Origin: Dictyostelium discoideum
Taxonomy: Eukaryota
Assembly (NCBI GenBank): GCA_000004695.1
Contig: CM000154.2
Coordinates: 4,032,001-4,096,000 of the forward strand
DNA: 64,000 nucleotides
Direction of reading: 5' to 3'
The translations under genes were made by a program, and so were the position numbers. Positions 26,161 through 64,000 of this stretch are shown one piece after another. Below the pieces are notes generated by a model. The model had not been told where the DNA came from. It did no database searches and saw nothing but the letters and a program-made list of their open reading frames with translations. Numbering within the stretch: the stretch's first letter is position 1; every line of letters begins with the position of its first letter.

Positions 26161-28793
<2,633 letters not shown>

Positions 28794-47740: not shown

Positions 47741-48955
47741 ATGAAAAAGGTTACCAATGAAGAGATTAAAACAATTGAATCAGCAGTAAATACAATTGGT
47801 GGAGGTGAATTATATTCATTTTTTAAAATTTCAAATTATTCAAATGAAGCAGAAATAACAAAAGCATATAATGAATTCAAAAAAATAAATAATAATGATA
47901 CAACAGCAATGGATAGTTGTTATAAAGTTTTATCAGATTCAAGATTAAGATCAATTTACGATTCAATTTATTTCAAAGATTTAATAAAACAAAATAATAA
48001 TATTCAACAACAATCAAAACAACAACATCAACAACATCAATCAGGAAATCAAATTGATGAAAATAATAAATTATTATTATTAAAAACATTATCAATTCCA
48101 TTATATACCTTATCAACAATTTTAAATGCAAATTCTGGAATTATTAATAATAATAATAATCAAATTAATTTATTAAATGGTGGAATAATTAATTATTTAA
48201 TTAAATCTCATAAAGAATTAATTCAATTAATTTTTGAAAAAAGTGGAATAATTGGATTTTATAGAGGAAGTATTTTCAAGGTAATTTCATATCCATTCCA
48301 AAAATTATTTGTTAATATTCCATCATCAATTTTATTGAATCAATGTTTTTATAAAAATAGTTTTATTAAACCATTAATTTATAAAACAATTTCAGAATTT
48401 CCATCAACTTTATTATCAGATTATATGATTTTATCATTTTCGACACCACTAATTAATCAAATTAAAAATTTATTTGGAAATAACAGCAGTGGTGGTGTTG
48501 TTGTTATTGACTCAATTTCAATAAAGAATTTATTTTATTCAATTGGATCATCAATTATTTTATTATCAACAAGAAGATTAATTTTAAATTTAATTAAAAA
48601 AGTTGAAATTAAAATAATTCAAAGTAAAATTGAAAATCCAAATTCTAAATTAATAAAATATAGTCAAATAATTTATTGTAATCCAGTAATTCAATGTTTG
48701 TTAACAACTTTATTAATTAATCCATTAGAAGTTTTGCGTTTACAATCAATGGTATCATATTTAAATAATTCTTCAAATAATTTAAAAATTTTATCACCAA
48801 TTCAAATGGTTATTGATTTAATTAAAAATCAAAATTCAAATTTATTTGGTTATTTATTTAATGGTGCTCCAACTTTATACCTTTATTTATTAATTTTAAA
48901 TTTAAAAAAATTAAATAATAATAATAATAATGATAATATTCATTCATTAATATAA
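47741..48955 (+). CDS. Hypothetical protein of 404 aa with a degenerate N-terminal J-like domain (no HPD tripeptide) and a hydrophobic C-terminal half.
   Basis: ORF 47741..48955 carries ELYSFFKISNYSNEAEITKAYNEFKKINNNDTTAMDSCYKVLSDSRLRSIYDSIYF. This follows the DnaJ helix II-III pattern (Y..L.v...A...eIkkAY......N......F..i..AY.vLsD...R..YD), but HPD is replaced by NNND. The downstream half has several hydrophobic stretches. Confidence 0.45.
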   Translation: MKKVTNEEIKTIESAVNTIGGGELYSFFKISNYSNEAEITKAYNEFKKINNNDTTAMDSCYKVLSDSRLRSIYDSIYFKDLIKQNNNIQQQSKQQHQQHQSGNQIDENNKLLLLKTLSIPLYTLSTILNANSGIINNNNNQINLLNGGIINYLIKSHKELIQLIFEKSGIIGFYRGSIFKVISYPFQKLFVNIPSSILLNQCFYKNSFIKPLIYKTISEFPSTLLSDYMILSFSTPLINQIKNLFGNNSSGGVVVIDSISIKNLFYSIGSSIILLSTRRLILNLIKKVEIKIIQSKIENPNSKLIKYSQIIYCNPVIQCLLTTLLINPLEVLRLQSMVSYLNNSSNNLKILSPIQMVIDLIKNQNSNLFGYLFNGAPTLYLYLLILNLKKLNNNNNNDNIHSLI

Positions 48956-50631: not shown

Positions 50632-50685
<54 letters not shown>

Positions 50686-51372: not shown

Positions 51373-53606
51373 TAATATTATTTTATTTATTTTTTAATTT
51401 TATTTAATTTTTACTTTTATTTTGATTTTTTAAAAAATAATAGAAAATCTTTAAGAGATAATGAAGAACATTTAAATAAAGCTCATGAAGAAATCAAAAA
51501 TGCTTTAAATGGTGAAGAATGGATTATCGAGTTTGACTGGGATACTATCTTTGATAAAATTGATGAGTTTGCCAAAAAACAATTAGTAATTATTATATTA
51601 TTTTTATTATAATTATTTTTTTATTTATTTTAAATCTAATATTTTTTAAAATTATAAAAAAAAAAATAATAAAAATAATAAAGGGAGAAGTATTTTATAA
51701 AAATTTATGTCCAAATATTTCAAAATGTATTGTTAATGCATGCAAAGATGAAATTACTAAAGAAAGTATAATTAATGCAAATTCAGCTAAAAAGATTGTA
51801 TTAATTGTTAATGAAGATCCAAAGAATACAGTTTATTGGAAGTATGAATTTAATGGTGGTCAATTAAATCTTTTATTTAAAAAAGGTTGTTGTAATTTAT
51901 CAGATGCTGCAAATTTCCAATTATATAAAGTTATTCCAAGTGAAGGTTCTTATACATTAGCAACTCGTCTTAATTTAAAAAAGAATCAAGAGAGATATGA
52001 TGTTGCTTTTGAAAGAATTAAAGCTGTTACTAAAAGAGATTGGTCATTCGATCAAGAATCAATGGAGAGTGTTTATCCAACCGCTTTTGAAACTGATAGT
52101 TCACGTGAACAATTTGGTGATTCATTTGCAACAGTATTGGAAAATTGTGCACAAAATATTGAAAAAAGATGTAAAAATGATATCACTTTGGAAAGTTTTA
52201 ATGAAGTAACCGCCAATGCAAGATTCAGTTTTAGACATTGTCCAAAACAAACCACTGGTTATTGGGTTTGGTCATTTAGTAATGGTGATGTTATAATTTC
52301 ATTCAAATCAGTTTGTAATATCTCTGAAAATGCAAATTTTGATTTCGTTAAAGTTTTACCAGTTCCAGGTGTATTCTCTTTAGCCGCTCGTTTAAATTTG
52401 AAAGAAAGTCAAGAGAAATTCGATACTGTATTTGAAAGAATTAAACAAGTTACAAATGTGGATTGGTCATATGATCAAGAATCATTAGAACAAGTTTATC
52501 CAAAACTTGAAGATAGAAATAAAGAAAGATTAGGTGAAATCTTTTCAGATATTTTAAAATACGCCGCTGATAATATTACAAAGAGGTGTAAAAATGAAAT
52601 TACTTTAGAATCATTCATTGAAGCAACTTCAAATGCTAAGTTTGTATTCCGTCATAATGTAAAGCTTAATGGATACTGGGTTTGGTCATTTGAAAATGGT
52701 GATTTAGTCATTACATTCAAATCGATTTGTAATGTGTCTGATAATGCAAATTTTGATTTCATTAAAGTTTTACCAGTTCCAGGTGTTTTCTCTTTAGCAG
52801 CTCGTTTAAGTTTAAAAGAAAGTCAAGACATGTTTAATAGTGCATTTGAAAGAATTAAACAAGTTACTAAAATGGATTGGTCATATGATGAACAATCATT
52901 AGAACAAGTTTATCCAACACTTGAAGATAGAAATAAAGAAAGAATTGGTGAAATATTTGCCGAGGTACTAAAATACGCTGCTGATAATATCGTTAAACGT
53001 TGCACAAAGGAAGAGATTACTTTAGAATCATTCATTGAAACAACTTCAAATGCTAAAATTGTGTTCCGTCATAATGCAAAACTTAATGGATACTGGATTT
53101 GGTCATTTGAAAATGGTGATTTAGTTATTACATTTAAATCAATTTGTAACGTTTCTGATAATGCAAGTTTTGATTTCATTAGTGTTTTACCATCACCAGG
53201 TGTTTTGACATTGGCTTCAAGAATTAATTTAAAAGAAAATCAAGAGAAAATTCAAGAATCATTTGAAAAAATTAAACAAGTATTGGGTAGTGATTGGAGT
53301 TATGATGAATCATCAATTGAACAGGTTTATCCAAAGCTTGAAGTACATAATAAACCACGTGTTGGTGAAGTTTTTGCTGATATCATTTGTAATATCAGTA
53401 AAAATATCGTTAAAAGATGTTCTGATGAACTTGTAAGAGAAGCATTCATTGAATGTGTTTCAAATGCTAAAATAGTTTTCCAATTCATTGAAAAACAACC
53501 AACATATTGGGTTTGGAAATTTGAAGGTGGTAATTTAATTGTATCATTCAAATCAATTTGTAATATTAGTGATAACTCAAATTTAGACTTTGAAACACTT
53601 CTTTAA
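51295..53606 (+). CDS. Protein of about 695 aa built from five tandem copies of an unrecognised ~135-aa domain. Three exons, approximately 51295..51317, 51444..51585 and 51684..53606.
   Basis: Exon 1 is MPLNLVA with a GTAAAA donor at 51318 followed by an A51 tract. Exon 2 (RKSLRDNEEHLNKAHEEIKNALNGEEWIIEFDWDTIFDKIDEFAKKQL) ends at a GTAATT donor at 51586. Exon 3 starts after an AAAG acceptor at 51683 and continues in frame into ORF 52062..53606. The repeat consensus is CKNEITLESFIEaTSNAKFVFRHN.KLNGYWVWSFENGDLVITFKSICNVSDNANFDFIKVLPVPGVFSLAARL.LKESQ..F...FERIKQVT..DWSYD..SLEQVYP.LEDRNKERIGEIF. Copies start near 51690, 52130, 52540, 52950 and 53360. The last copy is truncated, and copies 3 and 4 are about 85 % identical at the nucleotide level. 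Confidence 0.7.
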
Positions 53607-54337
53607 AGAAATTATTTTATTAAATAATAAAATTTTATTGGAACATTGATTCCAATGTTTAGTTTTTCATTTTTAATATTATTATTTATACTATTGTTAA
53701 TGTTCTCTATAATAACATTGTTTTTATTTTTTGGTTGTGATTATTATCATATTTAAAAATTATTTTTAAATTATTTTTAATATCACCTATTATCGAATAT
53801 TATTGAATATTAAATTCTTTTAATTTATTTAAATTAACCTATTTTTTATTTTTTTTTATTTTTGAAAGTGTGTGGTTTAATAAGTATTGGTCATTCTTTC
53901 CAAAAAGTTGGGGTTCCAAAAAAAAAAAAAAAAAAAAATACCCCATCACACACAAATTAATTATCAGAATTTTTTTTTTTTTTTTTTTTGAAAACCAACT
54001 GTTTGGAAACGGTTTATTATTGAAAATCATTTTTTAACATTTATGGTTATTTTGGGATAAAAAACAGTTTATAAAAAAAAAAAAAAAAAAAAAAATCTAA
54101 TAAATCTTATAAAATTGTTGATAATTTAAAATAATAGATTTAAGAAATCTGATAAAAATTTTTTTGGTATGTAAGGTAATTATTTTTCATGATTTATTTA
54201 TTTATTTTATTTTATTTTATTTAATTTATTCAAAAATGTTTTTTTTTTTAATTATAATTAACCAAAATAAAAAAAATAATTTATTTATTTTTTATTTTAT
54301 TTTAATTTATTAGATAAAATTAATATAGAATATTGAA

Positions 54338-63068
<8,731 letters not shown>

Positions 63069-63195
63069 AATAAAAATTTATATAATAATTTTTGAATAAA
63101 TAATAAAATGAAACAAGCCTAAATTGAAATTTTTTTAATAAAAAAAAAAAACTTTTTTCTTTTTTTTTTTTTTTTTTTTTAGATTTTCACAACTA

Positions 63196-63425
63196 TTTTA
63201 AAATACCAATAAACACTCACCAACCACAAATTTTTTAATAAAAAAAAATAAAAGAAGATTTTTTAAATAAAATTATTTGTCTGTTTTTTTTTAATGCTTT
63301 GTAAAAATTTTTTTTTCATATAATAAAATTATTTCTTTTTTTATATTCTAATAATATTTTGACTATTCTTTTTTTATATCAAAATAAAAAATTTGTGGTT
63401 GGTGAGTGTTTATTGGTATTTTAAA
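63196..63425. repeat. Perfect inverted repeat of about 38-39 bp, with arms near 63196..63236 and 63387..63425 and a spacer of about 150 bp, in the 565-bp intergenic region between the two tandem PKS genes.
   Basis: Arm 1 is ttttaaaataccaataaacactcaccaaccacaaatttt. Arm 2 is aaaatttgtggttggtgagtgtttattggtattttaaa, its exact reverse complement. The arms are markedly C/G-richer than the surrounding poly(A/T) sequence. Confidence 0.8.
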
Positions 63426-63512
63426 TTTGGATGATTCACCATTGGAATATTTTTTGGCAATAATAAATTTAATTTTAATGTTCGCAAGATTTAAAAGATA
63501 ATTGTATTTAAA

Positions 63513-63579
<67 letters not shown>

Positions 63580-63633
63580 TATAAATTAATTTTTTTTTTT
63601 TCAAATTATAATTTAACAATATTACAATATAAA

Positions 63634-64000
63634 ATGGAAAAATATGATATTTACTATAACAGTAACGAGGAATATTACGGTGATGTTGCAGTTATTGGCA
63701 TAGGTTTGAGATTTCCAAGTGGTGATTTAAATGAATCAATTTCAAAACCAAATCAATTATTTAATTCATTATTAAATGGATTAAATGGAATTGTTACTAC
63801 TTCTGAAAGATGGTCTGATAATTATTATTTAAATGGTGAAATTAATTCAGTTTCCGCTGGTTTATTACCTCTTGATGAATGGAAACGATTTGATCCAATA
63901 TTCTTTGGAATTAATCCAAGTTATGATAATGTTGTTACAATTGATCCTCAACAAAGATTATTATTAAAATGTAAGATATTCCAATTAAATCTACCCAAAA
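63634..64000 (+). CDS. Second type I polyketide synthase gene, showing the KS N-terminus. It runs off the 3' end of the window.
   Basis: The product reads [113 protein letters not shown] followed by GTAAGA. This is about 95 % nucleotide identity with exon 1 of the upstream PKS (54338..54662), including the intron donor. Confidence 0.8.

Follow-up and report, generated by a model that had tools for sequence, protein, structure and literature searches.

The stretch of DNA analyzed here (the window, 64,000 nt) is, on the evidence of its sequence, part of chromosome 5 of an AX4-like Dictyostelium discoideum, and its G+C content ranges from 15 to 36%. The gene DDB_G0290459 occupies 47741-48955, and 51442-51585 joined to 51684-53603 encodes a protein with 100% identity to DDB_G0290465 of AX4. 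Beyond these lie two tandem PKS genes, PKS1 (54338-63068) and PKS2, which has its ATG at 63634. We considered PKS1 as a candidate frameshifted pseudogene and dropped this reading, its split-ORF pattern being common to five genomes. The 565-nt spacer that separates the PKS1 stop codon (63066-63068) from the PKS2 ATG contains a long inverted repeat (IR), which sits at -437 to -209 relative to the PKS2 ATG. Given the AATAAA motifs directly after the PKS1 stop codon, the IR would lie beyond the end of the PKS1 mRNA. From ~63518 onward, other strains have homologous sequence in their PKS 5' regions. The features of the spacer are given below, where R denotes an arm-like sequence in the orthologous spacer of the relative ACTFIR, and S and x together denote the stretch of ACTFIR from the left-flank homology to R.

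63066-63068, + strand: PKS1 stop codon, with AATAAA motifs at 63069-63074 and 63095-63100, read from the sequence
63095-63196, + strand: left flank, colinear with the ACTFIR spacer and ending in the anchor TTTTCACAACTATT right before the left arm
63152-63182, + strand: T-rich run, CTTTTTTC plus T21, then AG, 15 nt upstream of the hairpin
63197-63237: left arm, CA-rich on the + strand, putatively the native arm-like R in inverted form, rc(R)
63238-63384: spacer of the IR, 147 nt, 10% G+C
63260-63310, - strand: block rc(S), a reverse-orientation match to the ACTFIR sequence between the left-flank homology and R
63311-63384: block Y, the right half of the IR spacer, 74 nt, without an ACTFIR counterpart
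63385-63425: right arm, GT-rich on the + strand, oriented like the single R of the ACTFIR spacer
63451-63489, + strand: possible third, diverged arm-like copy, ~27/41 with gaps to ACTFIR R
63519-63636, + strand: PKS2 proximal promoter, comprising a T59 run, TATAAAT, a T12 run and the ATG at 63634

The arms of the IR (63197-63237 and 63385-63425) are perfect over 41 nt and are exact reverse complements of one another; the left arm reads TTTAAAATACCAATAAACACTCACCAACCACAAATTTTTTA. The initial annotation described a perfect repeat of 38-39 bp around a spacer of ~150 bp. This repeat is real, its arms are 2-3 nt longer than claimed, the spacer measures 147 nt, and the whole element, composed of arm, spacer and arm, spans 229 bp (63197-63425). 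The spacer is 90% A+T, and the arms, as had also been claimed, are richer in C and G than their surroundings, with a G+C content of 24% versus 10% in the spacer and in each flank. A repeat search stretches the arm pairing to 60 nt at 88%; the inner 19 nt of this extension are A/T-rich and ~63% matched, which is near chance, and the IR is thus sharply bounded. The spacer of the IR contains a direct repeat with a 33-nt period (63333-63354 and 63366-63387, 86%), and the motif AAAAWTWGTGGTTG recurs once elsewhere in the sequence, at 50680, which is at chance level.

A chance origin of the 41-nt IR is excluded. None of 100 dinucleotide shuffles of the window yields an arm match, and in a census of perfect inverted repeats whose arms each have 3 or more G/C and whose spacer does not exceed 1 kb, the runner-up in the 64-kb window is 16 nt long, which bears out the original statement that such a palindrome is unlikely by chance in 64 kb. 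The census maximum is likewise 16 nt in nine related loci (~200 kb) and 17 nt in 30 block-shuffles. In folding calculations the element reaches -72.0 kcal/mol as RNA of the + strand (z -9.7), -68.2 kcal/mol as RNA of the - strand (z -9.2) and -52.1 kcal/mol as DNA (z -9.3). As a by-product, a hairpin with a 41-bp stem is thus predicted for the element in DNA as well as in RNA.

The loci of relatives were retrieved via orthologues of the upstream gene. A near-identical strain represented by an independent chromosome-level assembly, GCA_054883475.1 (ACTFIT, locus L003), has the identical 229-bp element and flanks; over 21 kb, it is 99.56% identical to the window, with 7 mismatches and 14 gaps, and in the region of the element it differs from the window solely in T-run length. 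The presence of an identical element in an independent assembly shows that the IR is not an assembly artefact. ACTFIR, a genome deposited as D. discoideum, has a syntenic locus (L007) that is 87-95% identical to the window at the nucleotide level over 22 kb and retains both PKS genes without the IR; the ACTFIR PKS spacer is 862 nt long, and there is no global alignment of it with the 565 nt of the window. The locus of ACTFIW (L008) is also syntenic but lacks the PKS2 promoter and 5' end, the spacer being joined directly to mid-KS sequence. The ACTFIZ locus (L004) is syntenic, contains PKS1 and ends 140 nt past the PKS1 stop codon, which makes it uninformative about the IR. D. firmibasis, D. 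citrinum and D. dimigraforme (L005, L006 and L009) have the upstream gene and no PKS pair at this position. We rejected locus L001 as an orthologue; it contains a paralogous PKS pair with 82-85% identity and a C-terminal reductase extension, and it is without the arm. Considered together, the sequences point to spacers of the tandem PKS genes that are structurally unstable between lineages labelled D. discoideum, and local signs of instability include the fusion of the ACTFIW spacer to mid-KS sequence and the internal 33-nt direct repeat in the spacer of the window. One reading put forward initially was that of a regulatory feature, and loss of the repeat in relatives was proposed as a test of it. 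We looked for such loss; ACTFIR keeps the PKS pair without the IR, which argues against the IR as a conserved regulatory feature.

The origin of the arms becomes apparent from comparison with ACTFIR. The 41-nt arm was searched for, with a score that takes base composition into account, on both strands of the window and of nine loci, ~0.52 Mb of positions in total. The best non-self match is at L007 22158-22198, AAAAAAAATAGTGGTTGGTTAAATTTAATTGGTAATTTTGA, with 30/41 identities and 25.3 bits, while the next best match scores 18.8. This arm-like box, R, belongs to the orthologous spacer, where it is oriented like the right arm and precedes the ACTFIR PKS2 ATG by 142-182 nt. The arm scan of both strands found nothing in the ACTFIR spacer that corresponds to the left arm in its orientation. 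The right arm together with 14 nt of its right flank aligns without gaps to L007 22159-22212 (39/54). On the other side, the left flank at 63095-63187 is identical to L007 21973-22068 at 72/93 positions and is followed by the anchor TTTTCACAAYTATT, with 63183-63196 corresponding to L007 22082-22095; the colinearity of the left flank with L007 runs to the base just before the left arm. In ACTFIR, 62 nt (S-x) separate the anchor from the arm-like box. Since the arm has a diverged single-copy homologue in the orthologous ACTFIR spacer, we regard the arm as native to the spacer and not as foreign.

The interior of the element also resembles ACTFIR, in part and in reverse. The segment 63260-63310 matches L007 22094-22144 in reverse orientation, with 40/51 identities of which just three are G/C matches. 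The alignment of the IR spacer to the S-x sequence of ACTFIR scores 24.0 in reverse (p<0.001, 1000 shuffles) versus 12.5 in forward orientation (p=0.31). The left arm combined with the left 73 nt of the spacer, as rc(63197-63310), gives a colinear alignment to L007 22094-22195 with a score of 38, a value reached by none of 500 shuffles (maximum 27) and by none of 716 real AT-rich segments of the window (maximum 30.5). The S block alone, when compared with real AT-rich segments and with the whole ACTFIR spacer as the target, gives p=0.036. These alignments suggest, with moderate support given that the DNA is 90% A+T, that the left part of the spacer is inverted relative to ACTFIR. Block Y, the part of the spacer beyond this alignment and next to the right arm, has no significant ACTFIR alignment in either orientation. 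We considered and rejected a simple insertion of the left arm beside an unchanged spacer, the forward spacer failing to align to ACTFIR S-x. The spacer region of the window is ~190 nt longer than that of ACTFIR, and one arm plus the IR spacer comprises 188 nt. Global alignments pair 63451-63489 with ACTFIR R as its colinear partner; because this segment also aligns to R, more than one local duplication may have occurred.

The two arms differ from each other at 0/41 positions, whereas the right arm differs from ACTFIR R at 11/41. This divergence of 27% is above the locus-wide value of 5-13%. The identity of the arms to each other compared with their distance from ACTFIR suggests either that the event postdates the split from ACTFIR by a good margin or that conversion between the arms is ongoing.

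Based on these comparisons we lean, with somewhat better than even confidence, toward the interpretation that the IR is a young, lineage-specific structural scar made from sequence native to the spacer. The ancestral spacer would have been organized as it is in ACTFIR, F_L - S - x - R - F_R (F_L and F_R being the left and right flanks), with a single GT-rich box R located ~150-250 nt upstream of PKS2. In the lineage of AX4 and ACTFIT, the S-x-R block would have been inverted, with R retained or duplicated at the other breakpoint, and the outcome would be F_L - rc(R) - rc(x) - rc(S) - Y - R - F_R, in which the two copies of R are the 41-nt arms. One possible mechanism is that one breakpoint was cut in a staggered way and the ends were then filled in and joined; alternatively, an intrastrand template switch during replication could have given the same product. 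Template-switch events of the quasi-palindrome or fold-back (Ripley) type produce perfect inverted copies in one step, with sharp boundaries and without a transposase. The classical cases perfect short quasi-palindromes with small loops, unlike the element described here, in which the spacer is 147 nt long and the enclosed sequence appears to be itself inverted.

Staggered breakage has a precedent in the chromosomal inversions of Drosophila, where inverted duplications of unique sequence, down to 46 bp in length, are found at inversion breakpoints, sometimes at one breakpoint, and where the sequence between paired nicks is modeled to end up as an inverted duplication flanking the inverted segment (Ranz et al. 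2007, PMC1885836). The arrangement that we propose is similar in that inverted copies of an ancestrally single-copy sequence bracket a reversed segment. The duplication is 41 bp here versus 46 bp in the shortest of those cases, and unlike those chromosomal inversions the segment would be ~100-190 bp within one intergenic spacer and is accompanied by the extra 74-nt block Y, which a one-step inversion model leaves unexplained. We found no description of such inversion-flanking duplications for dictyostelids in the literature; the kind of event is known, while the instance, and an event of this scale in a dictyostelid, are new. The direction of change, the break-and-repair mechanism and the recency of the event are all inferred from sequence comparison, and the polarity (gain in the AX4 lineage or loss in ACTFIR) is so because there is one usable outgroup. 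No function need be assumed for the IR. The initial annotation had listed a recombination feature associated with the tandem PKS duplication among its readings, and this part has fared best, in that a product of local inversion or inverted duplication fits the comparison better than the other readings do; the accompanying hotspot is hypothetical.

The properties that suggest a recent origin are also those expected if the IR were old and had been kept perfect by gene conversion between its arms, with the spacer flipped and the left arm later lost from ACTFIR. Perfect arms combined with an outgroup copy diverged by 27% suit concerted evolution as well as they suit recency, the orientation of the spacer differs between the window and ACTFIR as IR-mediated flipping would produce, and the tandem PKS genes have signs of gene conversion. 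However, this history requires more events, namely formation of the repeat, a flip and a loss in ACTFIR; a trace of the left arm is absent from ACTFIR on either strand, and the AX4-like window and ACTFIT have a single spacer orientation in common. We consider it unlikely.

The interpretation of the IR as a young scar also has to be weighed against insertion of the whole 229-bp element in the AX4 lineage as a MITE or foldback-type non-autonomous DNA transposon, as was proposed initially. The element resembles MITEs and foldback elements, as well as the Tdd, DDT and thug families of DNA transposons that exist in D. discoideum, in being short, AT-rich and non-coding, in having terminal inverted repeats, here perfect over 41 nt, and in its distribution among lineages, present in AX4 and ACTFIT and, as an IR, missing from ACTFIR and ACTFIW. 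The outermost bases of the arms would permit a palindromic TA, TTAA or TTTAAA target-site duplication; these candidate duplications are palindromes inside the IR and are therefore uninformative, and no direct repeat is present flush outside the arms, where the flanks read …CAACTAT and TTTGGAT…. Unlike a MITE, the element is single-copy in the DNA examined. No second copy was found in the 64-kb window and nine loci of ~20 kb each, where exact, 3-mismatch and blastn-short searches recovered solely the two arms. Scanning metagenome and prokaryote collections with the arm pattern gave 0 matches, neither collection being expected to hold Dictyostelium DNA. Furthermore, ACTFIR lacks a clean empty site. 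In its place are ~62 nt and an arm-like sequence that match the element itself, and the sequence adjoining the arm-like box matches the interior of the element in reverse, which is unexpected for an imported element; both arm and interior are thus homologous to the orthologous spacer of a relative, in contrast to what is seen with MITEs. Among the D. discoideum families, thug-S copies yield miRNAs; thug-S includes a gene with an intron and thus differs from an element of 229 bp. With no second copy in the window and the fetched loci, no non-palindromic target-site duplication and a native homologue in ACTFIR, we disfavor the transposon interpretation and regard it as rather unlikely.

It is known, mainly from plants, that miRNA genes can be born from young inverted duplications. 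In accordance with such an origin, the element might be a hairpin-RNA gene encoding a proto-miRNA or siRNA precursor, in which transcription would start at the G that follows the T-run (63182) and read through the IR, and DrnB would cut the 41-bp stem into approximately two duplexes of 21 nt. We consider both the predicted gene and the predicted dicing quite unlikely. The known miRNA hairpins of D. discoideum are intergenic, often nearly perfect and in some cases repeat-derived, and pri-miRNA start sites in this organism have been reported to have a motif composed of a T-run then a G (PMC6161686), which the T-run and G located 15 nt upstream of the hairpin resemble. The predicted fold is strong on both strands, and that of the + strand, at -72 kcal/mol over 261 nt or -0.28 kcal/mol/nt, is below the threshold of -0.2 (PMC6161686 Table S1). 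However, the listed miRNA hairpins have energies of -0.5 to -0.73 kcal/mol/nt (PMC6161686 Table S1), and the 147-nt loop and 229-nt length of the element fall outside the listed range of 105-180 nt (PMC6161686). Thus, in comparison with the D. discoideum pri-miRNA hairpins (Avesson 2012; Meier 2016, PMC4894637; Liao 2018, PMC6161686), the element is similar in its intergenic location, its near-perfect stem and its upstream T-run and G, and differs in having a much larger loop and a weaker energy per nucleotide. The upstream feature is also non-specific, as runs of this kind are found everywhere: the window has 93 that are 15 nt or longer, 47 of T and 46 of A.

Further comparisons also argue against a hairpin-RNA gene. 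The text supplements of the papers on miRNA loci (PMC6161686, PMC4894637) do not contain the arm, the chromosome-5 miRNA loci in Table S1 of PMC6161686 have different sequences, and a full-text literature search did not recover the arm core. No match at gathering score was obtained with Rfam 15 in the window, and matches within 62000-64000 are at chance level only (E of at least 2); the tRNA search (ARAGORN) found none. We also looked in the window for near-complementary targets of 21-mers from the arms and obtained nothing notable at up to 4 mismatches, and the element is not conserved in ACTFIR. The more specific proposal that the inverted duplication is a newborn hairpin-RNA locus, with DrnB and RbdB dicing its stem into approximately two phased 21-nt duplexes, is in our view highly improbable. 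If true, it would provide a snapshot of the birth of a de novo miRNA or siRNA gene in Amoebozoa, in the promoter of a secondary-metabolism gene, and the newborn hairpin locus would be present in lab strains and missing from diverged wild lineages.

The same low standing applies to a paired palindromic transcription-factor site controlling PKS2, which we find very hard to credit: the arms are the only islands of 24% G+C in a spacer of 10% G+C, lie 209-437 nt upstream of the PKS2 ATG and have a related single box at a similar distance upstream of ACTFIR PKS2, but the paired arrangement is not conserved in ACTFIR and ACTFIW, a separation of 147 nt is unlike a dimeric palindromic site, and an arm-like motif is absent both upstream of PKS1, where the initial annotation had suggested that a related motif might occur, and at the paralogous PKS locus L001. 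GT- and CA-rich boxes are typical cis-elements in Dictyostelium, and the GBF site is KGKGKGK, i.e., (T/G)G(T/G)G(T/G)G(T/G) (PMC2257962). As a GT/CA-rich island in an AT-rich promoter region, each arm is similar to the G-boxes of GBF and the CA-rich elements of developmental promoters; unlike the G-boxes, the arms lack an exact heptamer, with 0 occurrences in the arms and 0 in the spacer at 63069-63633. As a conserved feature, then, the paired site claimed initially does not hold, the IR being missing in ACTFIR, the region being lost in ACTFIW and the arms containing no GBF heptamer. The upstream regions of both PKS genes contain two exact GBF heptamers only, both upstream of PKS1 (53869 and 53948). 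These two heptamers are in inverted orientation around an A21 run.

Considered as a young structural scar, the IR is of small significance and modest interest in itself. It suggests that a striking, palindrome-like promoter feature in Dictyostelium can be the scar of a recent rearrangement rather than a regulatory or mobile element. With the -437 to -209 region rearranged by the element, the PKS2 upstream region of the AX4 lineage would be a poor guide to that of relatives, a point of relevance to promoter studies. The IR may also be usable as a lineage marker. Finally, given that small-RNA libraries of AX2/AX4 exist, the IR would offer an inexpensive test of whether inverted duplications of recent origin are transcribed and diced in Amoebozoa.

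The tandem polyketide synthase genes of the window, PKS1 and PKS2, are missing at the syntenic position, downstream of the DDB_G0290465 orthologue, in D. firmibasis, D. citrinum and D. dimigraforme, where unrelated genes follow that orthologue instead. At this locus, only the D. discoideum group has gained the PKS pair. DDB_G0290465 itself (window 51442-53603) encodes an uncharacterised 695-aa protein made of internal repeats of ~140 aa, which match one another at 68-78% nucleotide identity; its homologues extend out to Heterostelium and include JGI metagenome proteins. A paralogous PKS lies at 4.635-4.656 Mb of GCA_054859385.1, on the same contig as the ACTFIR locus; it is 82-85% identical to the window pair, carries, unlike that pair, an extra C-terminal reductase-type extension, and is followed by a gene for a truncated PKS N-terminal fragment.

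We compared the 5' region of PKS2 (window 63518-63986) with that of PKS1 (54217-54700) and with the PKS1 5' ends of ACTFIR, ACTFIW and ACTFIZ. The window PKS2 5' region shares 87-89% identity with the corresponding PKS1 region in the other strains and 95% with the PKS1 first exon of the window lineage, a sequence pattern that suggests gene conversion between the tandem PKS copies. A T59 homopolymer occupies window 63519-63577, just 5' of the PKS2 TATA-like box; the run at the same site is T25 in the near-identical ACTFIT assembly (GCA_054883475.1), reflecting either a length polymorphism or assembly uncertainty. Elsewhere in the window, long trinucleotide-repeat tracts, (AAT)n and (ATT)n (26479-26525 and 27170-27276, ~650 nt apart), form a low-complexity inverted repeat of 47 nt.

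[quoted passage not shown]

GBF-consensus heptamers upstream of PKS1
53869, TGTGTGG, exact match
53948, minus strand, TGTGTGT, exact match

Between them lies an A21 run flanked by TTGGGGT and ACCCCAT. This arrangement might be a genuine element of a developmental promoter.

The KS-coding part of PKS1 (window 54329-56999) breaks up into six or more ORF segments that lie in differing frames, with gaps of 35-300 nt, and this layout is common to five genomes (the window, ACTFIT, ACTFIR, ACTFIW and ACTFIZ). The split ORFs are probably due to several short introns and not to decay; automatic gene models of PKS1 disagree on its length (2684, 2667 and 2844 aa). In ACTFIW (GCA_054859355.1, locus L008, 21440-22345), a spacer of ~500 nt leads directly into coding sequence from the middle of the KS, which matches window 55396-55804 at 95% identity. 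This locus lacks the promoter and 5' end of PKS2, and the ACTFIW gene model joins PKS1 to the mid-KS sequence beyond the spacer.

ACTFIR and ACTFIW were both deposited as Dictyostelium discoideum. Over syntenic DNA (window 41377-63123), their loci are 86-95% identical to the AX4-like window. This divergence is far above strain level and points to cryptic species.
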